From contig JBAXEI010000004.1 in NCBI GenBank assembly GCA_037140515.1, positions 8,453-72,452 on the forward strand: a DNA stretch of 64,000 nucleotides. The letters are read 5' to 3'. This DNA is from Candidatus Berkelbacteria bacterium (GTDB taxonomy: Bacteria > Patescibacteriota > UBA1384 > XYA2-FULL-43-10 > 1-14-0-10-43-13). Of this stretch, positions 38-29,425 are shown one piece after another (positions within the stretch are counted from its first letter, which is position 1; every line of letters begins with the position of its first letter). The translations under genes were made by a program, and so were the position numbers. Under the pieces are notes generated by a model that worked only from the letters and a program-made list of their open reading frames with translations, did no database searches and was not told where the DNA came from.

Positions 38-706
38 TTATTTTTTGCTACTGGCTTGTTTGAACCAGTAGTCCTCAGGCGCCCATTCGTATCTTATCGA
101 TACATGGGCAGTGTCTGGTGAACTTTTTATCCACCAATCACCAACTGGCACATATCCGTGCTCTTTGCAGATTTGATCCCGCAGCGCAATTAATTCTGCG
201 ACGGAGCCGTTCTTGTAGTGAAGTTCACCGCCATTGGTTGCCCAAGGACGATAGCTTTCAATAGTGAATTCACCTCTAAGTTTCGGGTCCAGAAAGACTT
301 TTTCGACTTTCTGAATCTTCGACATGAAGATGACATGATTGATTCCGCGCCAGATTCCTCCCACGAGGACGATCAAGGCGACAACGATCATGGTGCCAAT
401 TTGCACCTTATCATTGGCTCGTATCCCTAAGAACGCGAAGCCAACGATGGACACTATGCCACAAAGCGCGGCTAAAGCGATAATACCTACGGTGTAAAGT
501 AGCTCCACACGGTAGAGAATCATCATTGCCACAATGGCGATAATACCGACAACAGCCAGAATTTTTTTAATCTTTCTGCCGCTGCGTTTTTTTGATACTG
601 TATTCATTTTCAATCCCCTTTTGCCACAATGCTTACTACGATTAAGCGAATTGTTAAATATATTATACTCTCTTTTTTGATATTTGTCAATAGAGTGATG
701 TAGCAA
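38..706 (-). CDS. Hypothetical membrane protein (N-terminal TM helices, C-terminal soluble domain)
   Basis: The ORF is 222 aa. Hydrophobic segments (ILAVVGIIAIVAMMILY and VGIIALAALCGIVSIVGFAFLGI) are followed by a Trp/Tyr-rich C-terminal domain. No family was recognised. Confidence 0.4.
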   Translation of the reverse strand: MLHHSIDKYQKREYNIFNNSLNRSKHCGKRGLKMNTVSKKRSGRKIKKILAVVGIIAIVAMMILYRVELLYTVGIIALAALCGIVSIVGFAFLGIRANDKVQIGTMIVVALIVLVGGIWRGINHVIFMSKIQKVEKVFLDPKLRGEFTIESYRPWATNGGELHYKNGSVAELIALRDQICKEHGYVPVGDWWIKSSPDTAHVSIRYEWAPEDYWFKQASSKK

Positions 707-873: not shown

Positions 874-1227
874 ATGAGCCAAGCACTAAACCAAACGATT
901 AAAGACGTCATGGAGAGCGATATTTTTGTTTATCTGAAACTCGAAGAAATGCCAGAAGATGATAAGGCAAAAATGATCGAAAACGTTCTAAGTTCTTTGA
1001 AAAGCCGCGTTATGCTTCGTGTCGCAGATTATCTTGAAGAACAGGGCAAATTTGAAGAATTCAAATCAATATTAAACGAAGATACACCAAGCGACGAGAA
1101 GATCAACACATATCTTACCGACAACAAGGTGCCAGTTGATGTTTTCACCGCCGAAGAATCAATTATACTAAAAGCAGAAATTATGGGCCTTAAACCACAG
1201 ATTGCTGGAGGAAAAGATGCTAGGTAG
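874..1227 (+). CDS. Small acidic helical protein, translationally coupled to the downstream giant gene
   Basis: The ORF is 117 aa and Glu/Asp-rich. Its stop codon (TAG, 1225-1227) overlaps the ATG at 1217 of the next gene. A TATAAT-like box lies at about 850-855. Confidence 0.4.
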   Translation: MSQALNQTIKDVMESDIFVYLKLEEMPEDDKAKMIENVLSSLKSRVMLRVADYLEEQGKFEEFKSILNEDTPSDEKINTYLTDNKVPVDVFTAEESIILKAEIMGLKPQIAGGKDAR

Positions 1228-4200
1228 TTATGAATCAAGCATGGGCTCAGCAGATGAAGAGGCAATGAAGTTCAAGGCCACACCCGATCATGATGAGAAG
1301 ACCCCAAAAGCTCCATACGAGGAGGCAGTGGATACAGTAGATCCCGTAATGAAGTCATACGAATCAGGAAAAACTCCTTATGAGCCAACTCTCGCCCCAG
1401 ATCCAATCACTCCATACGAACCTGGCGAGACTCCATACGAGCCGACTATAGCTCCGTACGAACCTGGCAAGACTCCATACGAGCCGACCCTAACCCCAGA
1501 TCCAATCACTCCATACGAGCCTGGATTGACTCCATATGAGCCGACTGTTGCACCAGAAACTCTTGATTTTCGTGCAGAAGCACTCAAACTGATAAATGCG
1601 CTTTCGGAAAGAGATAATGCAAGAGCCTTAGAGAGATACGCCGGCCAAAAGCCTCTTGGCGCTCTTTCTAGCGCACTTCGGCTTTTTAGATTGAGAAACC
1701 AAGCAGCATGGGTTGACAAAACCATCAATGATCCCATCTCTCGCGGACTAGCACCAATATATACTTTTCTAGATCGAGTCGGTGAAAGATCCATCTCAAA
1801 CGATGCAGAGCTTACAGTCGACGAGAACCTGGAAAATGCTGGCAAATACACCAAAACGCCTTGGTGGCGCAAAGCACTAAAAATCGGCGCAAAAGTCGCT
1901 GGTGGAATCGGCGTAGCAGGCGCAATGGTGATGACTGGTGGAGCCGGCATTGCCACTTCCCTCCTCTGGGCAGGTGGTTTGAAGGAAGCATACGATGGTG
2001 CCGCACAGACGATAGAACAGATAGGCTGGGGAAATAAACGAGCTCAAGCCGAGCTTGGTTGCCAAGCAGAGCTTACAACGCTTACCGACGCTCTAAAAGC
2101 GCGTGTTATGAACGAAGCCGAACCACTCACGCCTGAAGAATTTAGCGCGATGGTACAGAATATCCTTGAGACCGAAGCTACTCTGATGGCACAGCAAGAG
2201 AAAAATGCTTGCGGCGAAGCTAAAGGCAAAGTGATCAGATCTATTGCGACCTCAGCCGCGACACTAGGCACTGGTCTCCTTGCAGGCGTTCCTGTCGGCG
2301 AGGTCAACTATGATAACAACAACACCGCACTCGCCGAATCGCTCCACTCTGCAACCGGCGATCAAGCGCTAAAAGCAATGGACGAATCCCATAGAGTTTT
2401 TTGGAGTGCACTTAAGGGTGGACAATTTGCCTACAACCATACAGAAGGAATCTCTGGTGCGATCAATGATTCACTAAATGGAGCCACAGCTACTGGGGCA
2501 GAGATAGACAAAGTCAATAATTTAGTAAATTGGCTAAACGTGACTATGAAGGGCGAATTTGGATCATTTAGCCTTGCAACCACAGACACATACGGCCAAA
2601 CTGCTCATGAACTTGGTAGAACCCTAGCAAATCTTGACTGGACAAAAATTGGCGCCGCTGGTGCATATCTGATTGGAGAGATGTTTTCACATGGCAAGAA
2701 GAAGAAAGAGCCAACACCTTATGAACCTGACGTTGTTCCATACGAACCAGATGTCGTTCCTTATGAGCCAGACATTGCCCCAGATGAACCAGACAAGAAA
2801 AAGAAAAGAGAAACAATAGGTGATGATGGTCCTGCAATACGCGCTCCTGGAACATATGAGCCTGGCGACGCAGAAGAAGATCCTGATGAAGAAAAAAGTG
2901 AGGACATAAGTGAGGACATCGAAAAATACGTTGACAAAGAGAAGAAGGCCACGGACAAATACTTCGGGAGAATGACAGAAGAGTACAAGAAGACAGTTGA
3001 AGCTGTCGCTGAAGATCTGCCACCAATGAAAGATGAGTGTCGCTTCTCTGTTTGCGTCCCAGCTGCCTATTCTGAGCATCATGTCATCTACGGCTATCTC
3101 GATTCATTTTTGGGACAGGAAAACCAAGATGGCACGCCGCTCAATCCAGATTCCTATGAGATAAATATCTTCGTGAACGGCACCGTCGACAAAGCCGCGG
3201 ACATTGCTGCTACAGTTGCCGAAGTTAATAAATTCAAAGCCGCTCATCCAGAGATAAACGTAAATGTCATTAGCAAGGGCTACGAGGAAAGAAAACCTCT
3301 TGGATATTTACGAAAAGTAGTAAACGACCAAGCACTTTTGCGAGCTAGCCAACGTGGAAACTCTGAAGGGCCAGTCTACTTGGTCTCTCATGATGCTGAT
3401 GTCCGTATGAGCGACAAAAACTATTTTGCAAGAGCGATGAAACTCGATCAAAATTATGAAGTCAAGGTTCTAGCTGGCAACATCGACTATTCCAAAGAAG
3501 TAAAACAAAAATATCCTTTCCTCTGGGTCGCCAGAAGACTGTGGCAATATCTTGATTTGGTCCGCACTTCAGTCCCTGGAGAAGTTAGTTTTCAACGAAA
3601 AGCCGTCGGCGCTAATACATTTGTTCGTGGCGAATCATACGCCAACGTCAACGGATTTAATTCGCTCGATAGAGTTGCAGAGGATTTGAACTTGGCTGCA
3701 AAGATCAAAAATCGCGAGGGCTTCAAACCTTCCGCAAAAAATACTATTGATGGTATGGATGTCCGTCTAGATGTGTCTGAAAGAAGAGACATCGATCAGC
3801 TCGCAAAAGGCGAGACGTTGATCAGAGGATATGACAAGTTTGAAGAGAACGATCATGTCAGAGAGAAATACAAAATTGATGAGGAAAAGCTAGGTGAAAT
3901 AAATCCCGACAATGAAGAAATGTTCAAGAAATACTTAGAAAGAGAGCTATCAGAGCAATACACTCATCTTTTTCGAGATATCTTTACCAGAGTTAGCGAC
4001 AGAGAGCCTGAGATGAAAGCAGCTATTGATAGAGGTGCACCAAAATCTGAAAGAGTAGTAATAGAGAATAAAAATCTGAAAAGTAAGATTGGCACGGACG
4101 CTATCGCCCAGGCAAATCAGGTAGCAAAGAGAGCGTGCGGATTTCTTGGCATCAGCTTCACGGCAGCGCCAAGCCCAGATGGCGATAGATATGTATGCAC

Positions 4201-4258
4201 TATAACTGATTGGTCAAAGCTCAAGAACGATCTCAAAGAATCACTTGGCAAAATGTAA
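1217..4258 (+). CDS. Giant repeat protein with Pro-rich TPYEPT/PYEPG tandem repeats, a glycine-zipper hydrophobic segment and a C-terminal GT-A (GT2-like) glycosyltransferase domain
   Basis: The ORF track opens the frame at 1202 (a TTG reading). An ATG at 1217 preceded by GGAGGAAAAG is the more plausible start. The sequence TPYEPTLAPDPITPYEPGETPYEPT is repeated, and a second block reads PYEPDVVPYEPDVVPYEPD. A hydrophobic glycine-rich stretch reads KIGAKVAGGIGVAGAMVMTGGAGIATSLLWAGG. The C-terminus reads FSVCVPAAYSEHH...YEINIFVNGTVD...VYLVSHDADVRMSD, which is laid out like a GT2 domain with a DxD motif. Confidence 0.6.
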   Translation: MLGSYESSMGSADEEAMKFKATPDHDEKTPKAPYEEAVDTVDPVMKSYESGKTPYEPTLAPDPITPYEPGETPYEPTIAPYEPGKTPYEPTLTPDPITPYEPGLTPYEPTVAPETLDFRAEALKLINALSERDNARALERYAGQKPLGALSSALRLFRLRNQAAWVDKTINDPISRGLAPIYTFLDRVGERSISNDAELTVDENLENAGKYTKTPWWRKALKIGAKVAGGIGVAGAMVMTGGAGIATSLLWAGGLKEAYDGAAQTIEQIGWGNKRAQAELGCQAELTTLTDALKARVMNEAEPLTPEEFSAMVQNILETEATLMAQQEKNACGEAKGKVIRSIATSAATLGTGLLAGVPVGEVNYDNNNTALAESLHSATGDQALKAMDESHRVFWSALKGGQFAYNHTEGISGAINDSLNGATATGAEIDKVNNLVNWLNVTMKGEFGSFSLATTDTYGQTAHELGRTLANLDWTKIGAAGAYLIGEMFSHGKKKKEPTPYEPDVVPYEPDVVPYEPDIAPDEPDKKKKRETIGDDGPAIRAPGTYEPGDAEEDPDEEKSEDISEDIEKYVDKEKKATDKYFGRMTEEYKKTVEAVAEDLPPMKDECRFSVCVPAAYSEHHVIYGYLDSFLGQENQDGTPLNPDSYEINIFVNGTVDKAADIAATVAEVNKFKAAHPEINVNVISKGYEERKPLGYLRKVVNDQALLRASQRGNSEGPVYLVSHDADVRMSDKNYFARAMKLDQNYEVKVLAGNIDYSKEVKQKYPFLWVARRLWQYLDLVRTSVPGEVSFQRKAVGANTFVRGESYANVNGFNSLDRVAEDLNLAAKIKNREGFKPSAKNTIDGMDVRLDVSERRDIDQLAKGETLIRGYDKFEENDHVREKYKIDEEKLGEINPDNEEMFKKYLERELSEQYTHLFRDIFTRVSDREPEMKAAIDRGAPKSERVVIENKNLKSKIGTDAIAQANQVAKRACGFLGISFTAAPSPDGDRYVCTITDWSKLKNDLKESLGKM
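1369..1552 (+). repeat. In-frame tandem DNA repeat (about 57 bp units) encoding KTPYEPTLAPDPITPYEPG
   Basis: Two near-identical 57 bp units lie at about 1369-1425 and 1469-1525, with shorter related units between them. A second, smaller repeat block lies at about 2703-2790. Confidence 0.7.
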
Positions 4259-4259
4259 T

Positions 4260-6140
4260 CTAACTTAATCTCTTCACGCCAGCAATCGCATTTCTGTTTT
4301 CTTTATCAATCTGAAGCGCTTGCTGGTACATCTTGAGAGCCTCTTCTCTACTGTCTATTTTCTCTAAAGCAATCCCTAGATTTGAATAAATCCAGGAACC
4401 TTTGGGGTATAGCTCTACACATTCACGCAAAAGCGGGATTGCTTTATCGTATTGTTCAATATGCATTAAAGTGGCAGACAAATCTGCTTTTGCCCTAAAT
4501 GTAATATTGTTGTCTTTTGAGGTCGAGATAACGATATTAAAACAGTCAATCGCCTGATAAAATTTCCTTGCTTTAACTAGCTTCACAGCTAAAACATAAT
4601 TATCTTTTGGATCAAGTAAAATTTCTCTTGATTCAGTATTTGTGTCATCTAGCTCAATAGCACGATTATATGCGCGAAGTGACTCAGGATAGCTGCCGAG
4701 TCGACCGAGTATTTTTGCTTTTAGAGCTTGAAAAGAAGCATTCTCAGAAAGATCAGTTTCGATATCCTTGATCATTTGAGCAGCCTCCACCAAATGAGCT
4801 TCTGTGCCGATACCAAGCTTCGCCAAAACTTTGTCATAGGTAAACCAAGGATCGCGAACTGGATGGTCCTGTTCGAACTCTTCTAACAAGCGCAACGCTT
4901 TTTGCGACTTACCCATCGATAGCAAAACCACTGCTTCTTTCTGCCTCGTATCACCATCTTCAGTCCCTTTGAGCTCTTTGGCCTCTCTACGATTATTTGT
5001 CTTCTCGTAGACAAGCTTGGCATCTGTATCTTGCAATGAAGACATTTCCTGTTTTTTTAGTGGCAAATTTAGATTTTCTTTTAGGACAGCTACATTGATT
5101 GCTCTTTTTTCTGGGTTTGCTGACGAAATATGGCGCTGGTGATAACAAAAGCCACCTGTGTTTGGTATTACAAAGTTACCGAGCGAGATCAGTCTAGCAG
5201 TCAGATCTTCGTCTTCTGCACCGTAGCCAATATATCTATCATCATAACCAGCATATGTTTGAGCAAAATCCTCACGTTTTCCACTAACAGACATTCCCCA
5301 AGCTATCGAATAGATTCGCCAATCGTAGGCGTCGTCGCCGATATCAATAGGAAGCTGTTTATTGTGGCCACTAAGTTTGAGCCACTGACTATCCTCCATA
5401 CCACGATTAGCTACCCGAGGATCATTACCAATCTTTTGGGGCAACTGTGCAAGCGATCCCTCTGCTATGCTTTCTGGTGATAGCCGTGAGTCGTTACTGT
5501 CAATCTCGTCACGGAAGCCAAACATAACTACATTATCAAGAACTTCATGACGCTTCATATACTCTTCAATCATTGTAGGCGTATACACGACGTCTGGATC
5601 AGTCATTATAAGTATATCTCCAGAGCTTCTGATTGCACCGGAATATCTAGCTTTTGCAGCTCGGCCGTTGCTCTGGCGAAAAACTTTGATATTTAGATCC
5701 GACAAGCCAAGAGCTTCTATCTCTTCACCGATATTCTCGTCTGGAGATCCATCATCTACTACAACAACTTCTAGCTGCTGAGGGTATTTCGCGTTAAAAG
5801 TGCTTGCCTGTATCGAAAGCAAACTCTGTTTGAGACGGAGAAAATTATTATATGCAGGGACAACGACAGAGCAAGTTTTTGTGATCGCGATATCGTGTTT
5901 TTCTGATTCATATGGATCAGAAATAAGTTCACAACCCGTTTTTTTTTGATATTCTATTTCCGCTGAAGTATAGTCATTATCAAAAAACTCCAAAGTTTCA
6001 TACACGCTACGACCTTCCTGACGCATTTGTTCAGAAATGGCACGACGTTCACCAGAAATCTTCTCAAATTCAGTTTTTTTCTCGACTTGCGGATCTTTAA
6101 TTACCTCAACTTCAGATCTTTCACTCACAATACTCCTCAT
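4260..6140 (-). CDS. Family 2 glycosyltransferase fused to a C-terminal TPR-repeat domain
   Basis: The GT2 signature reads VVVPAYNNFLRLKQSLLSIQ and VVVVDDGSPDEN. The C-terminal 250 aa carry TPR-like repeats (AYNRAIELDD and ALKMYQQALQIDKEN). The gene is convergent with the giant repeat protein with no spacer. Confidence 0.7.
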   Translation of the reverse strand: MRSIVSERSEVEVIKDPQVEKKTEFEKISGERRAISEQMRQEGRSVYETLEFFDNDYTSAEIEYQKKTGCELISDPYESEKHDIAITKTCSVVVPAYNNFLRLKQSLLSIQASTFNAKYPQQLEVVVVDDGSPDENIGEEIEALGLSDLNIKVFRQSNGRAAKARYSGAIRSSGDILIMTDPDVVYTPTMIEEYMKRHEVLDNVVMFGFRDEIDSNDSRLSPESIAEGSLAQLPQKIGNDPRVANRGMEDSQWLKLSGHNKQLPIDIGDDAYDWRIYSIAWGMSVSGKREDFAQTYAGYDDRYIGYGAEDEDLTARLISLGNFVIPNTGGFCYHQRHISSANPEKRAINVAVLKENLNLPLKKQEMSSLQDTDAKLVYEKTNNRREAKELKGTEDGDTRQKEAVVLLSMGKSQKALRLLEEFEQDHPVRDPWFTYDKVLAKLGIGTEAHLVEAAQMIKDIETDLSENASFQALKAKILGRLGSYPESLRAYNRAIELDDTNTESREILLDPKDNYVLAVKLVKARKFYQAIDCFNIVISTSKDNNITFRAKADLSATLMHIEQYDKAIPLLRECVELYPKGSWIYSNLGIALEKIDSREEALKMYQQALQIDKENRNAIAGVKRLS

Positions 6141-6194
6141 TTTTATACATCAAGTATACCATGACAGGGGGAGGCGCCACAACGAGCTTGTTAT

Positions 6195-6236
6195 TAAAAA
6201 AATCACTAATATCTTTACAGATGTTAGTGATTTTTT
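6195..6236 (-). terminator. Rho-independent terminator downstream of tRNA-Asp
   Basis: A perfect 8 bp stem (ATCACTAA / TTAGTGAT) is flanked by an A-run and a T-run. Coordinates are approximate. Confidence 0.5.
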
Positions 6237-6237
6237 A

Positions 6238-6314
6238 TGGCGGGATCGGCCGGACTCGAACCGGTGACCTCCACAGTGACAGTGTGGCGTTCTAACCAAC
6301 TGAACTACGACCCC
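6238..6314 (-). tRNA. tRNA-Asp (GTC)
   Basis: The reverse complement folds as a cloverleaf with acceptor stem GGGGTCG/CGATCCC, anticodon loop CTGTCAC, T-loop GGTTCGAGTCC and an encoded CCA. Confidence 0.85.
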
Positions 6315-6381
6315 ATATAATCAAATGAGATTGTATCAATTTTTACGAGAAAAATCAATATTCAGCTGGCAGACAGAGAAA

Positions 6382-6864
6382 CTAACGTCTTCGCTTCTTT
6401 CCCTTACCTAATTTGATAAATTTTACATAGCCTAAAATCATAACAATTATGAGGCCAACCGTCACAAGTGCGAAGCGATACATACTATTATCACTCTCAA
6501 AACCACGAATTATAGCATAGAGCAAGGTTAGGAGCCCGCCAAGCAAGAAGCCATCGGTCACGATTGCTGTGTTCAGCAATAATGTCAGACTAAGTACGAG
6601 GAGCAGAACTGCAGCCACAACAGCGATCATTGAGACGTTTCTGCCATGAATTGCGGCTACTTTTTGATAATCAGCCATCTTTTTATCATAATCTTTTTGG
6701 ATTTGTTTATCTTCTGCAGACATTTGAACAGGTGTTTTCTCGCTATACTGGAGCTCAATAGGGTATTCCGGTGCCTTTGGGCTGTTGTAAAAAGCTTCGA
6801 TTCCGAGACCGACAAAAAAGGCAAGAATCACACCGAGAAAGAAAATGTACAGGAACTTTAACAT
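6382..6864 (-). CDS. Hypothetical membrane protein
   Basis: The ORF is 160 aa with 3-4 predicted TM helices and a central hydrophilic loop that carries a KQIQKDYDKKMADYQK motif. Confidence 0.4.
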   Translation of the reverse strand: MLKFLYIFFLGVILAFFVGLGIEAFYNSPKAPEYPIELQYSEKTPVQMSAEDKQIQKDYDKKMADYQKVAAIHGRNVSMIAVVAAVLLLVLSLTLLLNTAIVTDGFLLGGLLTLLYAIIRGFESDNSMYRFALVTVGLIIVMILGYVKFIKLGKGKKRRR

Positions 6865-6971
6865 AGCCCTCCTTTATTTATTTTCTATATTATACAACTT
6901 CTTGTAAAGAGCAGATACAAAATATTAGTTTTTTGCAATGATATACAGTGGATTATTTTGTCTAGAACTAG

Positions 6972-7310
6972 CTAAAGGGGATAAATGGCGACAACAGCCA
7001 TAACGCCGTCTTGCATAATACCCTCTACCCGGACTTGCTGGCCAAGAAAAGAAGCAAACTCTATCGATGGGGAATTACTAATCAGGACAACATTATTTAA
7101 GGAAACTAGGGCAACGCCACTCGTAACTTGAGAATCGCGTAGCTCAAAGACATCGACATTTTTCGTGACAACTCCTCGAGCGATAGTAATACCTGATTCG
7201 ATGGCGGTGTCTGCGTGATATCCATGCAATGATAAATACCTAACAAAAAAGCCTGCCGAGAGGCCAGTTACAAGGATCAAGCACAAAGTAACAACATCTT
7301 TTTTTCTCAT
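6972..7310 (-). CDS. Hypothetical exported protein
   Basis: The ORF is 112 aa with an N-terminal signal or anchor sequence. Its start overlaps the stop of the upstream M23 peptidase gene by 4 nt. Confidence 0.4.
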   Translation of the reverse strand: MRKKDVVTLCLILVTGLSAGFFVRYLSLHGYHADTAIESGITIARGVVTKNVDVFELRDSQVTSGVALVSLNNVVLISNSPSIEFASFLGQQVRVEGIMQDGVMAVVAIYPL

Positions 7311-8086
7311 GATTTTGGTATATTAAATGATTTTGGCAGTAAAAAATCTTCTTGTTGGTCAGGGTCAGTCAGACTAGGTTTGAAGAAACGATTTGCGGGA
7401 TAATCAGGCACAACCACTTTTTTCCAATCAGTTTGAATGAGCTTGCGCGGATTTATCGCCCAAGTTCCGTCTTCAACATATCGACGTAGTTCAAAGTGGA
7501 GATGAGGATTTACTGTGCCAGTTCGGCCTACGGAACCGATAACCTCCCCTTTTTTTACGTTTTGGCCCTCGATTACATCTACTTCTGATAGATGACCGTA
7601 AACCGTCTCATACCCCTCGATGTGTCTTATTGAAACAGTCCGTCCGTAGAGCTCACCAGCAAAGTATACAATGCCATCAGCTGCTGCTACAACAGGAGTA
7701 CCTTCTTTTGCGGAAAAATCTATGCCCTGATGACGGTTCTCTAGAGCAGGATATTTGTTGGCGTTGGTCTTGTTCAACTCAATAGCGCCAAACCAACCGT
7801 AGACAAACCATGTGTCACCGCTTCCAGCAACAAAGGCATTGTTTTTAGGGGTGAAGTTTGACCAACGCGATTCAACGTTGAATGGCAAGCTAAGAGTCAA
7901 TGTTGTGGGTGAATTTGGCTTTTCTGCCTTAACTAGCAGCTTATTCGGAAAAAAGTAAGCAGCTGAAAAAGCTAAAATAAAAGTCACAACATACAAAGTA
8001 TTTCTAAATAGTTTATTCATGATTGCTTCAATTATACGGCCAATAAAAATGGAAATCAAACTTTCCCAAAAAGCTATTAGAGACAA
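7307..8086 (-). CDS. M23 family metallopeptidase (LytM domain)
   Basis: The conserved block reads HQGIDFSAKEGTPVVAAADGIVYFAG...GRTVSIRH...YGHL...GSVGRTGTVNPHLHFEL. An N-terminal TM anchor is present. Confidence 0.8.
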   Translation of the reverse strand: MSLIAFWESLISIFIGRIIEAIMNKLFRNTLYVVTFILAFSAAYFFPNKLLVKAEKPNSPTTLTLSLPFNVESRWSNFTPKNNAFVAGSGDTWFVYGWFGAIELNKTNANKYPALENRHQGIDFSAKEGTPVVAAADGIVYFAGELYGRTVSIRHIEGYETVYGHLSEVDVIEGQNVKKGEVIGSVGRTGTVNPHLHFELRRYVEDGTWAINPRKLIQTDWKKVVVPDYPANRFFKPSLTDPDQQEDFLLPKSFNIPKS

Positions 8087-9466: not shown

Positions 9467-10999
9467 TTGAAATACTCTATGGCAAGTAGAAACAAGGTTC
9501 TTTTGATCGTGCTCGATGGCTGGGGACATCGAGAAGAACGAGAGCACAACGCGATAGCAGAGGCTGAGACGCCCTATTTTGACCACTTGTGGACAACTTA
9601 TCCACATGCACTTCTGGAAGCCAGTGGCGAAGCGGTAGGTTTGCCTGAAGGCCAAATGGGTAACAGCGAAGTTGGCCACACCACAATTGGTGCTGGCAGA
9701 GTTATTTATACTGACTTTGTCAAAATCTCCAAATCGATCAGGGAGGGCACTTTTGGTCATAACGAGGCGATTATTACTCTTTTCGACCATATCAAGGAGC
9801 ACAATTCGACCTTACATCTGCAAAGTTTGATCGGTCCTGGCGGTGTCCATAGTCACATCGACCACCTCTACGCGGCCCTACGAGCCGCTAAGGCAGCAGG
9901 GATTACGAAGGTGGCGATTCATGCCTTCTCAGATGGCCGCGATACCCCACCACAGAGTGGAGCCGGCTACCTTTCTGATCTTGAGTCCATGATCGAAGAT
10001 CTTGGCATTGGCTTCATCGCTACGGTTACCGGCCGTTTCTATGCTATGGACCGCGACAACAACTGGGATCGCTTAAAGATCGCAGAAGACGCAATTTTTA
10101 AAGGAATTGGCGTTTCGAAAAAGATGAAGCCATCTGCAGCCTTGCATGAGCTTTATCGCGAAGATATTGTCGACGAGCACATCAAACCGATCATCTTTCT
10201 TGATCAAGACGATAAAAGTTGGCAAATAGAGCCAAATGATGGCATTTTTATGCTAAATTTCCGTTCAGATCGTGCTCGAATGCTTGCAAAAAATTTGATA
10301 GAGAAACAAGAAGAAATGAATCTAGCGATTGTAACCATGACAGAATATGACAAGAAATTTAATTCTCTGGTCGCTTTTATGCCTGAAGAAGCGGAAACAA
10401 CTCTTGCGCAAGAGATAGCTGAATCTGAGCTAACTCAAGAACATATCGCCGAAACGGAAAAGTTTGCACATGCAACATACTTTCTAAATGGTGGAGAAGA
10501 AACACCGCACCGACACGAGAAGCATACTCTCGTCAAAAGCCGAAAAGATGTGGACACTCACGACTTAGCGCCGGAAATGAAGGCTGCTGAAATCACTGAG
10601 AAAACGCTTGAGAGCATAAAGGATGGTACGGATTTAATTTTTGTTAACTACGCAAACCCAGATATGGTCGGCCACACCGCCAACAAAGATGCGTTACTTC
10701 AGGCAATCAGCTTCGTTGATCAGCAACTCAAACAGGTGACTGATGCTGCGCTAGAAAATAGCTATGCTGTACTCGTGACTGCAGACCACGGAAATGCTGA
10801 AATATATTTTGACAAAACAAATAATGAGAAGCATACCGCACACACGATAGATCCTGTGCCCCTCATTTTGGTTTCGAACAAAATCCAAGTCAAGAAGATC
10901 GACTCTGGCAGTCTACGCGATATTGCACCAACTATACTTAGTATCCTAGATCTAAAAGTTCCCGACACCATGACAGGACAAAACTTAATTAAAAAATAG
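9467..10999 (+). CDS. gpmI: 2,3-bisphosphoglycerate-independent phosphoglycerate mutase
   Basis: The N-terminus reads VLLIVLDGWGHREE. The protein is 510 aa with an iPGM domain layout, and the gene is adjacent to eno. Confidence 0.9.
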   Translation: MKYSMASRNKVLLIVLDGWGHREEREHNAIAEAETPYFDHLWTTYPHALLEASGEAVGLPEGQMGNSEVGHTTIGAGRVIYTDFVKISKSIREGTFGHNEAIITLFDHIKEHNSTLHLQSLIGPGGVHSHIDHLYAALRAAKAAGITKVAIHAFSDGRDTPPQSGAGYLSDLESMIEDLGIGFIATVTGRFYAMDRDNNWDRLKIAEDAIFKGIGVSKKMKPSAALHELYREDIVDEHIKPIIFLDQDDKSWQIEPNDGIFMLNFRSDRARMLAKNLIEKQEEMNLAIVTMTEYDKKFNSLVAFMPEEAETTLAQEIAESELTQEHIAETEKFAHATYFLNGGEETPHRHEKHTLVKSRKDVDTHDLAPEMKAAEITEKTLESIKDGTDLIFVNYANPDMVGHTANKDALLQAISFVDQQLKQVTDAALENSYAVLVTADHGNAEIYFDKTNNEKHTAHTIDPVPLILVSNKIQVKKIDSGSLRDIAPTILSILDLKVPDTMTGQNLIKK

Positions 11000-11020
11000 A
11001 GCCACTCGGCTCTATTTTTT
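10998..11020 (+). terminator. Rho-independent terminator after gpmI
   Basis: The hairpin AGAGCC-ACTC-GGCTCT is followed by TTTTTT. Confidence 0.5.
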
Positions 11021-11157
11021 AATATTTGTATATTTATCTGATTTCGTTTTCTTGGCGTGTTGGCTGTTCGTCCGCACTTCCAACCCAGCTCCATACGCTC
11101 CAAAGTGCGAGCACAATAGCGGCGATTGCCAAGACAAAAATCAGGGTCTTTTTGGTA

Positions 11158-12195
11158 TTATACCGCATAGAACTTCAAGATAAGACTTTTCTTCTTTATG
11201 CTATCGATCCAATCAGTAAATTTCTCCTCGATCGAACCACTTTTTGATTCGACTAGAATAAGATGCCAGCCGTATTCAGTTCGAACAGGGGCAGACACTT
11301 GGCCTGCTTTAGCAGAAAAAGCTGCATCGGAGAAAGCATCTACCATTTCACCTTTAGCAAATGGAGCTAGTAATCCACCATTTGTAGCACTGGAGGTATC
11401 TTCTGAATATTTCTTGGCCGCATCAGCAAAGCTTAGCCCGGCACTAATCTCAGCGGCAATCGCATCGATCTTGGTTTTGGCAGCGGCTACGGCATCTGGA
11501 GTTGCTGAACTATCAGCGAGAATCAATATATGACTTGCAGTTACACGAGTGATCACAGCTTTGTCCAAGCCTTCACGGACAAGACGAACGTGCACGAGTT
11601 TGCGGAACTGTTTTGGTGTAAGTCCGTACATATCAGTCAAAGCTTTCTCAAATTTGTCTTGGCCACCGGCACCTTCAATGATCGCATTGATTGCAGCATC
11701 CTCATCAGCCTTTGTCACTTTGACATGGTGAATGATTGCTTCGTAGTTGACTATTTTGTTAGAGACCAAATCATCATAAATCTGCTGATCAATCTGAGTA
11801 TAATCCTCGATGCCTGCTTGCGCATAATTGTAGTAATGATGAACGTAGCCAACCTCATGAGTAAGCTCAGCATAGGTGACCGCATCATAGTTAACAAGTG
11901 TGACTGGATATGGAACTACTTTTGCAACTGCTTTCACATCAGCATCTTTTGACCTGTAACCGTAGATAAGCACCGCAAAATAGGTTATAGCGATCATGAT
12001 GATGATTGCAACAACATTTAAAGTTTTCACAAAAACCTTGAAACCAGAGCTTTCTGAAAGGTTTTCACAATATTCGCGTGAACTTTTATGAATGTCTTTT
12101 GTCTTTGATGCCAAATTCTTCGTGGCAGCGTGCACTTTTGATAAATCAACCTTCTTGATTTTCAAACCAGCAAGATTTACTTTTTTAATATCCAT
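11158..12195 (-). CDS. Membrane-anchored parvulin-type peptidyl-prolyl isomerase (PrsA/SurA-like)
   Basis: The C-terminal rotamase motif reads GGLLAPFAKGEMVDAF...YGWHLILVE. An N-terminal TM helix (VAIIIMIAITYFAVLIY) is present. Confidence 0.7.
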   Translation of the reverse strand: MDIKKVNLAGLKIKKVDLSKVHAATKNLASKTKDIHKSSREYCENLSESSGFKVFVKTLNVVAIIIMIAITYFAVLIYGYRSKDADVKAVAKVVPYPVTLVNYDAVTYAELTHEVGYVHHYYNYAQAGIEDYTQIDQQIYDDLVSNKIVNYEAIIHHVKVTKADEDAAINAIIEGAGGQDKFEKALTDMYGLTPKQFRKLVHVRLVREGLDKAVITRVTASHILILADSSATPDAVAAAKTKIDAIAAEISAGLSFADAAKKYSEDTSSATNGGLLAPFAKGEMVDAFSDAAFSAKAGQVSAPVRTEYGWHLILVESKSGSIEEKFTDWIDSIKKKSLILKFYAV

Positions 12196-14662: not shown

Positions 14663-15091
14663 CTAAGCTACTTCCGTTATTTTACGTTCTGTCTCTGAAA
14701 TATATTCAAACTCTAGGAGTTGAACTTTATTTTTCAAGATTGAAATGACAGTCTCTGGCCATTCAACCACAATAAGATTTTTTGAATCATCAAGAAACTC
14801 GAAGAAACCAATCGACTCCAAGTCTTCTGGTGATGATAATCGATAGCAATCGATATGAATAAGCTGATTAAATCTGTCTGACTTTAATATTGGATATTTT
14901 TTTAAGATCACAAATGTAGGACTAGTCACGATCTTTTCGACGCCAAGAGCAGCTGCCAAATATTTCGTAAAAGTCGTTTTGCCACTACCCAAGTCCCCTT
15001 TCAACGCCAAAATCTGACCAGGTTTTACCATCTTGGCAAAGTTCTCGGCAAATTCTTTTGTTTCTTCTTCGTTGTGAGAAATAAATTCCAT
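14663..15091 (-). CDS. tsaE: tRNA t6A37 biosynthesis ATPase TsaE
   Basis: A Walker A motif reads GDLGSGKTTFTK and is followed by SPTF, as in the YjeE family. The gene is adjacent to tsaB. Its 5' end overlaps the upstream ORF by 67 nt, so the true start may be further downstream. Confidence 0.75.
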   Translation of the reverse strand: MEFISHNEEETKEFAENFAKMVKPGQILALKGDLGSGKTTFTKYLAAALGVEKIVTSPTFVILKKYPILKSDRFNQLIHIDCYRLSSPEDLESIGFFEFLDDSKNLIVVEWPETVISILKNKVQLLEFEYISETERKITEVA

Positions 15092-16692
15092 ATTATAAAG
15101 AGTAATGACGAAATAATTAATACTACTTTTTCATCTCCGCCCGCGACAGGCAAAATGCCCGATCCCGTGTAGTCTGAAGTTGAAATTGTAACATCTTCCG
15201 CCCTAAATGGCAATATTCTGTACTCATTTTTGTATAAAGAAACGATCCCGGCGACCTTGAAGATATCACCGACTTTCATCGGAGGCTTATCGATACCGGT
15301 CGATTCACGAATTAAAATCTTAATCTCCGTGGCACTTACCAGATCTGCCACATAGAATGTGTCGCCAGAAGTTTTTGAAATTCGACCTTGAATTTGGACA
15401 TATTGATCCGTGTATCTCTCGCCGATATCTGATATCGATAGCAATATTGGGGAAACAGGAATTTCGCCAGACTTCAGATTCACAGCGCTACTTGAGCTAA
15501 TCTTTATTCGATTAGCCGCCGTGAGTGAGCCAGAGACGCTGACCGAATCACCCTGTTTCAGCTCTGGAAATTCACCATAGTAATTGTATATTTCATAACC
15601 CTTTGACCCAGTAGACAGATAGAATATCTGATCAGAAAGAACACCCGGCCATGCCGTCACTCTCCCGTCAACTGTTGTGGCGCCATTTGTGCTAGCGATG
15701 CTGGCAGATGAAGGACTGGATCCTGAGCTAATAGCAACGACAGCTTCCTTGTATTGATTTTCATTTCCCGGTGTCGGCTGCGCTGTCCATCTCCAGCTTC
15801 CATCAAATAGCGCATATCCGAGATCTTTCTTCGCTTTATCATAGGTCACAGACGATTTGAGATCTCCATTTGGATCAAGAAGACGAGCACTGTCGGTGTC
15901 GTTATTTAAGAATATTCCGGTCATACTATGATAAAATGCCAGATAACCGTTTGGCTCAATCCGAACTCCTTTCGGTATAGTGTAGCCACTGCTACCGCCC
16001 TCCTCATCATCAACAACCCAGCCACTTAGATCAACGGCGATGGCGGTTTTATTATGAAGCTCAATAAATTCTTCTCTTGATTCATCAGCAGGATATGCCA
16101 AAACCTCAGAGAGCTCAACGCTATCCAAGTAAGTGGGCTTTTCATACTTTGCAAATGGGGACGGCACAGGAATCTCAACAAAATCAACTGAACAATCATC
16201 GGAATCGAATCCAAGAATCTTTCGTTCAAGCGAATGACCAGTTTTGACAACTTTGCTTGAAATGATACCCGGGTAAGCTGAGTTGCCCCACGCTATAGAA
16301 TCTATTTCGGCTCCTGCAGGGTCCAAAAGTACCACATAGTCACCATCGTTTGAGAGATTAATTGTCATTGCCTCTATACTAGGATCAAGATCATACAAAG
16401 TATGAAAACCTGCGGTATTTCTGGCAATAACAAAAAATGATTTGGCCTTTATTGTTCCGGAGACAATGATGAAAGGAGCAGGCTCATTTGATTTGAGTTC
16501 ATACCCCGATAAATCGAGATCTAGATCAGTCGGATTGTACAGCTCGATCCATTCCTCTTTGGAGTCAGTTCCAACAGTATCATAATAGACTTCGTTGATC
16601 TGCAAACCAGCCGTTGCAGCATGGACAGAAAAATTCGGACTTAGACTACAAAACAGAGCCACCAGCAGAATCAGGACATAAACCTTCTTCAT
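15025..16692 (-). CDS. Secreted lamin-tail-domain (LTD) protein with C-terminal TM anchor
   Basis: A signal peptide reads MKKVYVLILLVALFCS. Two LTD-like repeats are present: LQINEVYYDTVGTDSKEEWIELYN and SEVLAYPADESREEFIELHNKT. The C-terminus is hydrophobic and followed by KKKQK. Confidence 0.7.
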   Translation of the reverse strand: MKKVYVLILLVALFCSLSPNFSVHAATAGLQINEVYYDTVGTDSKEEWIELYNPTDLDLDLSGYELKSNEPAPFIIVSGTIKAKSFFVIARNTAGFHTLYDLDPSIEAMTINLSNDGDYVVLLDPAGAEIDSIAWGNSAYPGIISSKVVKTGHSLERKILGFDSDDCSVDFVEIPVPSPFAKYEKPTYLDSVELSEVLAYPADESREEFIELHNKTAIAVDLSGWVVDDEEGGSSGYTIPKGVRIEPNGYLAFYHSMTGIFLNNDTDSARLLDPNGDLKSSVTYDKAKKDLGYALFDGSWRWTAQPTPGNENQYKEAVVAISSGSSPSSASIASTNGATTVDGRVTAWPGVLSDQIFYLSTGSKGYEIYNYYGEFPELKQGDSVSVSGSLTAANRIKISSSSAVNLKSGEIPVSPILLSISDIGERYTDQYVQIQGRISKTSGDTFYVADLVSATEIKILIRESTGIDKPPMKVGDIFKVAGIVSLYKNEYRILPFRAEDVTISTSDYTGSGILPVAGGDEKVVLIISSLLFIIWNLFLTTKKKQKNLPRTLPRW

Positions 16693-22258: not shown

Positions 22259-23194
22259 TTAAAGTTTAATTTTTTCTAGCTCAGCGAGACAGGCTTCTAG
22301 TAAGTGCGAAATTTCATCTTTTGTCATATGACCGCTACGATATATTTCTGATTTATCATTCTTGATCATGATATTTAGATTACAGATAGTGTCTGCCAAA
22401 TAGTAGAAGACGTAAAAATGGAAAAATGGCAATTCTTTAGCAGCTATATTAAGTTTTTCAACGAATCTCTTCTGCCATTCGGGATAAAGAATACTGCACA
22501 CATACACGTCTGCAAAGTCACGCCAACGGCTGTCGTAGCAAGAAAGTTCCCAATCAATGATGCCAGTGACTTTGTCATCCTGATAAATAATATTGCCCGG
22601 ATTCATATCAGCATGAGAAAGTCCGATATTTTCTTTCAAATAGCCTTCCAGATTGCTGTTCGCAAAGCTCTTCCATTTATCTAGTACAGTAAAATCATTG
22701 TTTGGCCACTCTGCTTTGAAATGATCATATCTTTTGTTATAAAAATCAAAGGCTTTGTAGGGGCGCTCTGTAAGGCTCGGCTTTGCCGCAAAGAATGCGT
22801 CAAAAATCGGAACTAACTTGGCAGGATCAATTTTGTCTATAAAATCCTGAGTGAACTTAAAGGAAGTACCTGCCTTATCGCCAGGGACAAGAGTTTGAAT
22901 AATCCAAAGTTTCTCTGCGCTACAGTCCAGCACTCGAGGCTGATGAGATGACCCAACGGACTCTAGAGCTCTCAGGATTGATATCTCGTTAGCAAAGTTT
23001 ATGTAGTCTCCTGGATTGACCTTCAGCACATATCGTACCGTAATGTCTTGTCCGCCTAGCTTACCTCGGATAACTGCCCGATGGTATTTTTGTTCGGCCT
23101 GTTTTCGAACGTCAAGAATATCGTATCCACTTAGATCTTTTCTTGATTTCAAAAAATTCTCTACTTCTGCTATCTTTTCAGACAACTCATCCAT
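22259..23194 (-). CDS. APH-fold (aminoglycoside/choline/sugar kinase-like) phosphotransferase
   Basis: The catalytic region reads HADMNPGNIIYQDDKVTGIIDWELSCYDSRWRDFADV, with the HxDxxxxN and DWE motifs. The substrate is unknown. Confidence 0.6.
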   Translation of the reverse strand: MDELSEKIAEVENFLKSRKDLSGYDILDVRKQAEQKYHRAVIRGKLGGQDITVRYVLKVNPGDYINFANEISILRALESVGSSHQPRVLDCSAEKLWIIQTLVPGDKAGTSFKFTQDFIDKIDPAKLVPIFDAFFAAKPSLTERPYKAFDFYNKRYDHFKAEWPNNDFTVLDKWKSFANSNLEGYLKENIGLSHADMNPGNIIYQDDKVTGIIDWELSCYDSRWRDFADVYVCSILYPEWQKRFVEKLNIAAKELPFFHFYVFYYLADTICNLNIMIKNDKSEIYRSGHMTKDEISHLLEACLAELEKIKL

Positions 23195-23220
23195 TGTAAC
23201 CCCAAGATTATATTTAATAA

Positions 23221-24144
23221 TTATCTACTAATTACCTTTGCTACTTCCGCAAAACCAGCTTGACCAACTTTTTCAATGTTACGAATATTTGAAGGCAATA
23301 CTTCGGGAACTTTTGTCGAGCCACTCAGCAGAAAACCCTTGTCACATACCTGCAAAAAACTGACATCGTTTGGAGCATCGCCGACACCGTATGTAATTAT
23401 TCCGGGTGCAATTTGCTTTACGATATTAATAAATAATTTTACTGCCGATCCCTTGTCCTGCTTGATTGAGATATGAGCGAAACGACCACCACGATGATAG
23501 TGAAGACCGTGATCAGTGATTATCTGCTTCGCAAAATCATAGTCTGCATCCAGACCGTTTTCGATATAAAATGGCTCGTCGCAATCTCGTTTTTTTGACA
23601 GCGCAGCCTGCTCAAGAGTCAGACCTGTCAGCTCGGATAGTGCTTGATCGGAAAAATCTCCAAAGCCATAAACTATCTTTCCTATCCTTGGTTCAACCTC
23701 TTTTTTTAAAACACTTCGGAGGCTAGAATAGTCAGCACGGCCAAAGCTCAGGATAATGTAGCCTAAATAGTCTTTTCTCGAGACCTCATCATATTTGTCT
23801 AGATCTACCTGATCAGCAACCTCCTCTGACAAATATATTGCAGCACCATTCTCAACAATAAATGATAATTTTCTTTTCAAACCCTTTTCTTTGAGAGCAG
23901 AAAAAAGGGCAAAAACCTCTGCTGCTGTCTTGCTTGTTACAAAAACCACTTCGTTGCCTTGCTCAAGAAAGGTGTTCAGAGCTTCATATGATCTCTCAAA
24001 CGAGTAATCATGATGGTCAAGAAAGGTCCCATCTAGGTCGCTAAAAAGTATTTTCGAAGTTAAATTATTCATGCAACTTCGCCTTATCAATCGGCCAGCG
24101 GGGCTTACGATCAGCAAATTTCTCCCGATATTCTGCAACTTCAT
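23221..24144 (-). CDS. HAD-IIB phosphatase, mannosyl/glucosyl-3-phosphoglycerate phosphatase-like
   Basis: The N-terminus reads ILFSDLDGTFLDHHDYSFE, as in MPGP-type HAD enzymes. A C-terminal GVGDAPNDVSFL motif is present. The gene overlaps the upstream GT gene by about 80 nt. Confidence 0.65.
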   Translation of the reverse strand: MKLQNIGRNLLIVSPAGRLIRRSCMNNLTSKILFSDLDGTFLDHHDYSFERSYEALNTFLEQGNEVVFVTSKTAAEVFALFSALKEKGLKRKLSFIVENGAAIYLSEEVADQVDLDKYDEVSRKDYLGYIILSFGRADYSSLRSVLKKEVEPRIGKIVYGFGDFSDQALSELTGLTLEQAALSKKRDCDEPFYIENGLDADYDFAKQIITDHGLHYHRGGRFAHISIKQDKGSAVKLFINIVKQIAPGIITYGVGDAPNDVSFLQVCDKGFLLSGSTKVPEVLPSNIRNIEKVGQAGFAEVAKVISR

Positions 24145-26254: not shown

Positions 26255-26274
26255 TTGTTGCCTTGTTTTCTATA

Positions 26275-28327: not shown

Positions 28328-28355
28328 TTTTTGTTCTCCTATTAGGAATCATCTA

Positions 28356-29423: not shown

Positions 29424-29425
29424 AT

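Follow-up and report, generated by a model that had tools for sequence, protein, structure and literature searches.

The window analysed here is a stretch of 64,000 nucleotides (nt) of a Candidatus Berkelbacteria genome (GCA_037140515.1, contig JBAXEI010000004.1, positions 8,453 to 72,452), and close to its start lies a two-gene unit in which a small acidic protein is followed by a large modular protein with a C-terminal glycosyltransferase (GT) domain. The unit is undescribed and is restricted to the Patescibacteria (candidate phyla radiation, CPR), which account for a large share of bacterial diversity and are attached to host cells. Tentatively, we read the large protein as a carrier-payload protein linked to a type IV secretion system (T4SS), accompanied by a DUF5663 adaptor or chaperone and, in the window's member, bearing a glycosyltransferase. 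A link to T4SS cargo was drawn because the carrier and its partner are constant in the family, the payload changes, and the unit occurs repeatedly in or beside T4SS loci of the monoderm type. The features are listed below by their position in the window.

802-831, + strand: promoter-like site TTTACA-18-TAAAAT with extended TG, upstream of the two-gene unit (consensus scan, 10/12 matches; pattern match only)
874-1227, + strand: small acidic helper gene, an open reading frame (ORF) of 117 amino acids (aa), pI 4.5, divergent DUF5663-like member
1207-1212, + strand: Shine-Dalgarno sequence GGAGGA of the large gene, inside the 3' end of the small gene and five nt before ATG 1217 (read directly)
1217-4258, + strand: large modular protein gene, an ORF of 1013 aa plus stop, with repeats, N-module, repeats and acidic linker, and GT-A domain
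1358-1546, + strand: first Tyr-Glu-Pro repeat block, residues ~48-110 (Tandem Repeats Finder, TRF: 99-nt unit x1.9, 83% match, score 273)
1541-2680, + strand: conserved N-module, residues 109-488, helical, with a Gly-rich hydrophobic hairpin, antiparallel helices of ~55 and ~51 residues, a third hydrophobic stretch and a small alpha/beta subdomain
1874-1984, + strand: Gly/Ala/Thr-rich hydrophobic helix-turn-helix, residues 220-256, turn at T240-G241-G242 (Kyte-Doolittle windows 1.2-1.5)
2237-2305, + strand: second conserved hydrophobic stretch, residues 341-363, RSIATSAATLGTGLLAGVPVG (Kyte-Doolittle 1.3)
2681-2944, + strand: second repeat block (PYEPDVV x3) and acidic linker (TRF: 21-nt unit x3.4 at 2723-2794)
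2945-4255, + strand: predicted GT2-type GT-A domain with helical C-terminal extension, residues 577-1013 (AlphaFold2, Foldseek, sub-threshold PF13632)
3392-3400, + strand: DxD motif D726-A727-D728, invariant in the GT-domain alignment of close homologs (A3)
3680-3685, + strand: E822-D823, putative catalytic-base position of the GT2 'ED' motif, invariant in A3 (assigned by motif order and spacing)
4260-6140, - strand: convergent gene for a GT2 enzyme with tetratricopeptide repeats (TPRs), an ORF of 626 aa

The best-conserved region of the large protein among 12 homologs was found, by a word-indexed search and alignment, at residues ~109-488 and not in the enzyme. This N-module is a new domain of ~380 residues without a solved relative. 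An exhaustive search with its profile (A2) returned 88 clusters among 1.84 billion representatives, the named members and loci belonging to Berkelbacteria, Saccharibacteria and other Patescibacteria, and as judged from these sequences the family is rare, patchy and confined to the Patescibacteria. Scans of metagenomes and genomes added just 7 loci because the DNA patterns used reach close relatives only. A mobile-element origin was considered and rejected, tblastn giving no match in plasmids, phages or viral contigs. No Pfam or NCBIfam relative of the N-module was obtained, nor a PDB relative in a fold search with the confident model. The HMMER search of PDB at E ≤ 1 gave no match for the full protein (the N-module profile was not run separately), and PADLOC and PHROGs gave no meaningful match for the large or the small protein. 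A full-text literature search found no paper mentioning DUF5663. The earlier view that this combination of domains is undescribed agrees with these results.

Two hydrophobic windows were present in the large protein, one at residues 229-254 (GGIGVAGAMVMTGGAGIATSLLWAGG) and the other at ~342-362. The Gly-rich hydrophobic segment had been anticipated and proved to be the most conserved part of the family, with G229, G230, G232, A234, T240, G241, G242, G244, T247 and L250 invariant in the homolog alignment; in the second stretch the invariant residues were R341, T349, G351, G353, G357, P359 and G361. These two stretches and the long helices between them form the core common to all family members. 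The AlphaFold2 (AF2) model of the N-module, built from 66 sequences (predicted local distance difference test, pLDDT, 87.7; predicted template-modelling score, pTM, 0.80), contained in order an N-terminal helical part, the Gly-rich helix-turn-helix with its turn at TGG, the two antiparallel helices, the alpha/beta subdomain and, at the end, an amphipathic helix. The hairpin segment corresponds to model helices 108-132 and 136-190, and helix 198-248 ends in the second hydrophobic stretch. Because the hydrophobic arms are short (~13-17 residues) and moderately hydrophobic (Kyte-Doolittle 1.2-1.5), the model suggests re-entrant, monotopic or switchable membrane insertion, not ordinary spans. Antisense ORFs opposite the Gly-rich region (window 1378-1956, - strand, and L001, L002, L003, L004, L005, L008, L011, L013, L018 and L019) were rejected as genes and regarded as shadows of the conserved sense frame.

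The small acidic gene was a fixed partner of the large one. A DUF5663-like gene lay directly upstream in 16/16 loci with visible upstream DNA (13 in the BLAST clustering plus L004, L009 and L023), with a gap of 0-8 nt or with an overlap, in keeping with the tight coupling that had been proposed. The window's 117-aa protein had no Pfam match at E ≤ 0.1. It was included in an alignment of partner proteins (A4), where 3 of the 8 aligned sequences gave weak matches to PF18908 (DUF5663), and a hidden Markov model (HMM) built from A4 recovered the PF18908-annotated partners in L014-L017 (E 1.7e-28). In the BLAST clustering, one group spanning 13 loci contained the partner gene of the window (L008 9326-9679) as well as those of L014, L021 and L022, which match PF18908; the partner gene of L023 matches PF18908 too. 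Since the window's protein stands inside the HMM-defined family at 1e-28 while lacking a direct Pfam match, it is, on these sequence comparisons, a divergent member of the DUF5663 family. It would be co-translated with the large protein and is most likely its binding chaperone or adaptor. The locus family gives context to DUF5663, a Pfam domain of unknown function. Two divergent DUF5663-like genes (5081-5449, - strand, and 5563-5904, + strand) were observed in L001 upstream of one family member, adjoining the gene of a 762-aa GT4 protein and a glycoside hydrolase (GH130) gene.

The three ORFs described in the original prediction were all present, with small corrections to their geometry. The large protein has 1013 aa plus stop and not 1014, and it is identical to the NCBI entry 'MAG: hypothetical protein WCI57_01820, Candidatus Berkelbacteria'. 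Its start at ATG 1217 can be upheld: besides the Shine-Dalgarno sequence five nt before it, NCBI and other gene callers use this start, and the same start was called in L008 and L009. An overlap between the small and large genes exists as well. The stop codon of the small gene (1225-1227) falls 8 nt downstream of the large gene's ATG; therefore the overlap is 11 nt (1217-1227), and the stop does not coincide with the ATG as had been stated. The spacer between the stops of the large gene and the convergent GT2-TPR gene measured 1 nt, where zero had been claimed. The GC content was uniform along the window, about 0.39-0.46.

The C-terminal part of the family is exchanged between members. The GT-A domain was found on 29/92 family proteins collected, and among the other 60, five had a Metallophos domain, two a DnaJ domain (J domain) and one, P0012, a GT9 tail, most being without a Pfam match; P0009 and P0010 had different C-termini again. 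The proteins P0027 and P0028, encoded in tandem on one 105-kb contig (L014, assembly GCA_964481135.1), were 100% identical over their first 420 aa, and diverged inside the Pro/Tyr/Gly repeat linker into a GT-A tail in P0027 and a metallophosphoesterase tail in P0028. The DNA of L014 contained a direct repeat of 1.69 kb with 4 mismatches (4567-6259 and 9572-11264), covering the upstream and promoter region, the DUF5663 gene and the N-module (first 420 codons). Next in the array came a third family member (772 aa) with a weaker N-module, together with two additional genes for DUF5663 domains, and the same tandem gene order was seen on an independent contig of the Joint Genome Institute (JGI). 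A constant N-terminal region with variable C-terminal domains is also a trait of polymorphic toxins; a classical polymorphic toxin was rejected, as neither an immunity gene downstream on the same strand nor a known toxin domain was present.

T4SS genes were found in or beside 5/12 loci, a locus being counted when it lay no more than about 20 genes from virB4 or adjoined a coupling-protein gene (t4cp). A gene for a VirD4-type coupling protein (PF02534 at 29 bits, TraG-D_C, TrwB) stood just upstream in L002, L006 and L011, and the tandem array of L014 ran on the same strand into genes for PrgI (VirB3), a TraC-like protein, a VirB4-type ATPase and an SLT+CHAP hydrolase. In L023 (Candidatus Berkelbacteria, GCA_016187225.1) a DUF5663/N-module pair with a metallophosphoesterase tail was located between membrane and T4SS genes, followed on the same strand by PrgI, TraC-like, VirB4 and SLT genes. 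Under a rough background of our own estimate, 6-10% per 20-kb neighbourhood, the P value for 5/12 loci was ~4e-4 to 4e-3. Together with the swapping of the C-terminal domains, these neighbourhoods give real support to the half of the original prediction that spoke of an effector module. The large protein itself had no homology to a known T4SS component, and no PDB fold similarity to one.

The monoderm-type T4SS of Patescibacteria is described as widespread, chromosomal and relaxase-less, and as essential for epibiotic growth in Southlakia, with no substrates known (Quinonero-Coronel et al. 2025, PMC12102498). The same paper names VirB3, VirB4 and VirB1 homologs as components of this MPF-FATA-like system, counts 2,474 virB4 genes in Patescibacteria and gives VirB6 and VirB8 homologs as scarce or absent in several classes; the terms 'DUF5663' and 'glycosyltransferase' are absent from its text, and no comparable protein is described in the section consulted (PMC12102498). 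Members of the N-module family resemble parts of this system in their placement, being found in operons with PrgI/VirB3, TraC-like, VirB4 and SLT(+CHAP) genes or beside VirD4-type coupling proteins, whereas the window copy lies away from any T4SS gene.

Some further observations were made on the T4SS loci. The region 2083-21810 of L023 is an apparently complete T4SS operon, with genes in the order 448 aa (1 transmembrane segment), 748 aa, 366 aa, 503 aa, 250 aa, the DUF5663/N-module pair, 872 aa, PrgI, TraC-like, VirB4, SLT and 348 aa. The 748-aa protein upstream of the pair has nine hydrophobic windows and is possibly VirB6-like, the N-terminal 400 residues of the 872-aa protein are charged and rich in Glu, Lys and Gln, and a relative of the 250-aa protein, 222 aa long, heads the L014 array. 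A membrane protein in the window (38-706, - strand) also has 222 aa and was tried as kin of that 222-aa upstream membrane protein of L014; despite the equal length the two were not joined by BLAST clustering, nor was the window's protein joined with the upstream membrane proteins of L008's neighbours.

The payload of the window's member was examined through an AF2 model of residues 577-1013, built on nine homologs (pLDDT 85; pTM 0.77). A Foldseek search of PDB gave 79 matches at E ≤ 0.001, and the best 50 of the 79 were all GT2-type GT-A enzymes. The top match was the Pyrobaculum mannosyltransferase PcManGT (6yv7, E 8e-9), and further matches included hyaluronan, cellulose and chitin synthases, the chondroitin polymerase K4CP and SpsA. 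The three GT motifs occurred in the expected order at residues 611, 650 and 722. The DAD motif was kept in 24/25 members alignable at this position, the remote ones included (P0090 has DTD), and ED in 25/25 members aligned there. The C-terminal GT-A/GT2 domain with a DxD motif, a central claim of the original prediction, is supported because the fold model is confident, the fold matches are of GT2 type and the motifs are conserved. Kinship with the GT44 and GT88 families, which had been put forward for checking, was not borne out by Foldseek: none of these toxin folds (TcdA/B, Lgt, SetA) was among the best 50 of the 79 matches.

Among sequence profiles, PF13632 was the best Pfam match for this domain at 18.1-19.7 bits against a cut-off of 27, sub-threshold yet recurring in 7/9 members. 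The curated thresholds of PF00535, PF13632 and PF13641 were not reached, NCBIfam likewise gave only sub-threshold glycosyltransferase matches, and a HMMER search of PDB with the A3 domain profile at E ≤ 10 gave no match. The usual DDG/DxS nucleotide-binding motif after strand 2 is replaced by V-N-G (N654 G655), hhalign pairing VNG with the DDG of the neighbouring GT2, and an invariant S-x-R-R-D stands, by inspection, at the equivalent place of QxxRW in processive synthases. Only two moderate hydrophobic stretches were present, both N-terminal to the GT domain. The domain thus shares with GT2 GT-A enzymes (PcManGT/DPMS-like enzymes, hyaluronan, cellulose and chitin synthases, K4CP, SpsA) the fold, DxD, ED and a weak PF13632 match, and differs from them in its sub-threshold Pfam scores, in VNG for DDG and in RRD for QxxRW; where GT2 synthases have a multi-span channel or a C-terminal transmembrane domain, there is here an N-terminal helical module instead. 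Sequence and model together suggest a divergent inverting transferase of GT2-like type, apparently capable of catalysis. The idea of a processive polysaccharide synthase with its own channel was rejected, since QxxRW and a multi-span domain are both missing and non-GT enzymes occur on the same N-module. The in-cis GT and the neighbouring GT2 were rejected as recent paralogs, the hhalign probability being 1.9% with only the nucleotide-binding strands aligned.

The N-module is flanked by repeats. The motif PYEP occurs ten times in the large protein, at residues 54-106 and 501-515, and TPYEPTLAPDPITPYEPG is present twice. Seven of the PYEP motifs belong to the first block, which has 20% Pro and lies within an acidic, Pro-rich N-terminal region, and the linker at residues 501-600 has a pI of 4.2. 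Both the tandem repeats, at the protein and DNA levels, and the acidic linker had been noticed before and are real. The second repeat and linker region is the site at which the C-terminal domain is exchanged in relatives. No signal peptide was found at the N-terminus of the large protein, and a hydropathy scan showed no hydrophobic start resembling one. In the close homologs the exact repeat sequence of the window is replaced by Y-x-P heptad-like units, and in the ~20 closest members Tyr is the conserved residue of the unit, before as well as after the N-module; no Y-x-P repeats were found in the remote GT-bearing members (P0068-P0078). The heptad-like units in the N-terminal regions of P0002, P0003, P0004, P0013 and P0022 and at window 1358-1546 (HTPYEPG, PSYEPTT, SYSPDSP, SYTPEGTYTP) bear a superficial likeness to the heptad YSPTSPS of the C-terminal domain of RNA polymerase II.

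The convergent neighbour encodes a protein with a PF00535 domain (1e-19, residues 91-224) and TPR families at residues ~400-620. The closest solved structure to its catalytic domain was the chondroitin polymerase K4CP (1.3e-11). In the comparison with PDB, chains of OGT were matched by the TPRs only, and GmaR was not among the matches, its solved part being without the GT domain. The original prediction had seen in this gene the architecture of protein O-glycosyltransferases. This holds for the fusion of a GT to TPRs, which is found in OGT and in GmaR, the flagellin O-GlcNAc transferase of Listeria, whose order is an N-terminal GT followed by TPRs in ~630 residues (PMC9638930). In GmaR and OGT the TPRs are used or proposed for recognition of the protein substrate. 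The catalytic part appears to be GT-A/GT2, nearest to a polysaccharide polymerase, and not of the OGT-like GT41 type. The GT2-TPR gene was also not a constant partner. A GT2(-TPR) gene accompanied 4/6 GT-A-type loci (the window, L002, L005, there without TPRs, and L014) and 0/5 loci with other tails, so that it is a lineage-specific and not a universal companion of the GT-A-type members. In L014 the gene is co-directional, and its start overlaps the stop of the GT-A member.

Under the favoured reading, the large protein would be a carrier-payload fusion of four parts: a disordered Tyr/Pro-rich head, the helical module of ~380 residues, a disordered Tyr/Pro/acidic linker and an exchangeable C-terminal enzyme. 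Its Gly-rich hydrophobic hairpins would be able to enter a membrane or to rest on it, and the window's payload, in which the catalytic motifs are intact, would be an inverting glycosyltransferase of GT2-like type. The family would then be T4SS-linked cargo, that is, secreted effectors, enzymes docked at the T4SS being less likely, and the window's member, sited away from the T4SS, may work jointly with the neighbouring GT2-TPR enzyme. A GT payload needs a nucleotide-sugar donor and must therefore work in a cytoplasm, either the producer's or the host cell's; for the family as a whole the payloads need nucleotide sugars or DnaK, and they must therefore act in a cytoplasm too. This reading fits best because it also accounts for the cassette-like duplication and the patchy rarity of the family. 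A more far-reaching version of it, which we hold to be rather unlikely, is that the DUF5663/N-module pairs are the first recognisable protein-substrate family of the Patescibacterial T4SS; the partner would be the adaptor or chaperone, the Gly-rich module would insert itself into the host membrane, and, in the cytoplasm of the host, the enzymes would work on its nucleotide sugars and targets, feeding or controlling it.

A number of points weigh against the T4SS-cargo reading. Around the window copy, 9 kb of upstream and 59 kb of downstream DNA are free of T4SS genes, no such gene is in view at 7/12 loci, and the 12 loci of the census are a small sample that is not phylogenetically independent. 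We know of no secretion signal or T4SS-binding motif for Patescibacterial T4SSs. No immunity-like gene follows the large gene, the next downstream gene being convergent in the window, L001-L006 and L021. An assembly error might in principle have produced the near-identical tandem heads, although these were seen twice, and the membrane behaviour of the N-module is a prediction from hydropathy and from an AF2 model of the monomer. Several loci have glycosylation genes around them (GT2-TPR; PMT_2 and GT2 upstream in L008; GT4 and GH130 in L001), and a GT, GT9, J-domain or phosphoesterase payload is just as typical of enzymes residing at the cytoplasmic face of a membrane. The main rival takes the family to be such resident enzymes, a proposal that we judge unlikely on the whole and still to be taken seriously. 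The N-module, as a monotopic or re-entrant anchor and scaffold, would keep enzymes that face the cytoplasm attached to the membrane of the producer itself. In the window, a membrane-tethered GT2 and the GT2-TPR enzyme would then build an envelope glycoconjugate, e.g. on a polyprenyl-phosphate carrier, perhaps together with the PMT_2, small GT2 and LytR-CpsA-Psr proteins encoded nearby, and DUF5663 would be an assembly factor or regulator. The best fold matches (PcManGT, hyaluronan, cellulose and chitin synthases) are membrane-interface GT2s acting on lipid or polymer acceptors, every recognised payload (GT-A, GT9, J domain, metallophosphoesterase) uses cytoplasmic cofactors, and the missing signal peptide, the arms too short for ordinary spans and the distance of the window copy from any T4SS gene agree with this proposal. 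So do the glycosylation neighbours, which include GT2-TPR genes in 4 loci, another GT2-like protein in L008 and a LytR-CpsA-Psr protein downstream in the window. A core envelope function would, however, be expected to be widespread and syntenic, whereas the family is rare and patchy; tandem near-identical heads with unrelated tails, and sites inside T4SS operons, would be unusual for housekeeping genes; and the dedicated small partner and the Tyr/Pro repeats would be left unexplained. If the resident-enzyme proposal were true, the N-module would be a new way to tether envelope glycosyltransferases in organisms with almost unknown surface biochemistry.

Two other explanations were weighed, and both appear improbable. 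The large protein could be a structural or accessory part of the T4SS. In that case the small-residue helices would let N-modules assemble with one another into a channel or scaffold in the membrane, which could take the place of VirB6- or VirB8-like parts, and the C-terminal enzymes would remodel the envelope locally. In L023 and L014 the T4SS operon encloses the pair, with membrane proteins encoded on one side and PrgI-VirB4 on the other; the invariant Gly/Ala/Thr pattern points to helices packed tightly against each other; and VirB6/VirB8 homologs are reported to be scarce or absent in several classes (PMC12102498). Against this, the loci that are not beside T4SS genes include the window, structural components are not normally duplicated with different enzymatic tails, no PDB fold similarity to T4SS components was obtained, and the family is far rarer than VirB4 (88 clusters vs 2,474 virB4 genes, the latter from PMC12102498). 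Just as doubtful is the protein-glycosylation module of the original prediction, a model that would be compatible with the cargo model. Here the Thr/Tyr-Pro repeats would be putative glycan acceptors, the GT2-TPR enzyme would start the glycan by way of its TPRs, as in GmaR and OGT, and the cis GT-A domain would extend it, giving a self-glycosylated exported or surface glycoprotein. The N-terminal GT followed by TPRs, which is the architecture of GmaR (PMC9638930), speaks for such a module. So do the conserved Tyr of the Y-x-P units on both sides of the N-module in the ~20 closest members, the occurrence of GT2-TPR genes only with GT-A-bearing members (4/6 vs 0/5) and the overlap of the GT2-TPR start with the stop of the GT-A member in L014. 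One member bears a GT9 domain, and adhesin heptosyltransferases are related to the GT9 family. On the other hand, P0028 has identical repeats and a phosphoesterase tail, the remote GT-bearing members P0068-P0078 are without Y-x-P repeats, and such repeats are also simply typical of disordered Pro-rich spacers. The K4CP-like catalytic domain of the GT2-TPR protein, with no sequence match to the catalytic part of OGT or to the solved GmaR, likewise counts against it.

Modular toxins and effectors that combine a constant delivery head, a variable enzyme and a small helper are known in several systems: LXG proteins with Lap, PE/PPE proteins, type III secretion system translocators with class II chaperones, and T4SS effectors with IcmS/IcmW-type adaptors. 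The present family shares with them a conserved N-terminal helical module, exchangeable C-terminal enzymes, a small acidic upstream helical protein, tandem paralogs and, in part of the family, adjacency to secretion genes. It differs in that there is no sequence or fold similarity and no downstream immunity gene, and its payloads are not classical toxin domains. The secretion system concerned would be a monoderm-type T4SS, for which no such substrates have been described. The glycosylating toxins (clostridial GT44, Legionella Lgt of GT88, SetA) are similar in that they too are large multi-domain proteins combining a DxD-bearing GT-A domain with a hydrophobic, possibly membrane-inserting region, but in the window's protein the order is reversed, with the GT at the C-terminus, and no autoprotease or receptor-binding repeat domain was found. 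A constant and structurally new carrier with a dedicated small partner, swappable tails and repeated sites in T4SS operons provides testable candidates for T4SS cargo or for missing parts of the machine. With their other payloads and their T4SS sites, the relatives are candidates for what is transported by a machine on which ultra-small bacteria depend for life on hosts.

The wider surroundings of the window's locus were also annotated. Upstream, genes for small membrane proteins and a beta-propeller protein accompany those for a GT2-like protein, a PMT_2 GT-C enzyme and a small GT2; downstream are genes for an M23 peptidase, enolase, phosphoglycerate mutase, a PpiC-type isomerase and a LytR-CpsA-Psr protein, and housekeeping genes. 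In L008, which covers the DNA upstream of the window in the same genome, the region 3630-7716 encodes the PMT_2 GT-C enzyme (606 aa), a 243-aa GT2 of the size of polyprenyl-phosphate-sugar synthases and a 505-aa protein with a sub-threshold Glyco_trans_2_3 match, a gene set that by its sequences looks like one for lipid-carrier-dependent external glycosylation. A sugar-metabolism cluster was observed within the window at 22259-30424 (- strand), with an APH/choline-kinase-like kinase, a HAD hydrolase, a 729-aa protein with a C-terminal GT2, two GT4 proteins, a 355-aa unknown protein and a GalT-like uridylyltransferase. Two further genes on the - strand encode a 555-aa protein with lamin-tail domains (15025-16692) and a 921-aa protein with bacterial immunoglobulin-like domains (52286-55051), which are probable surface proteins of this ultra-small bacterium.

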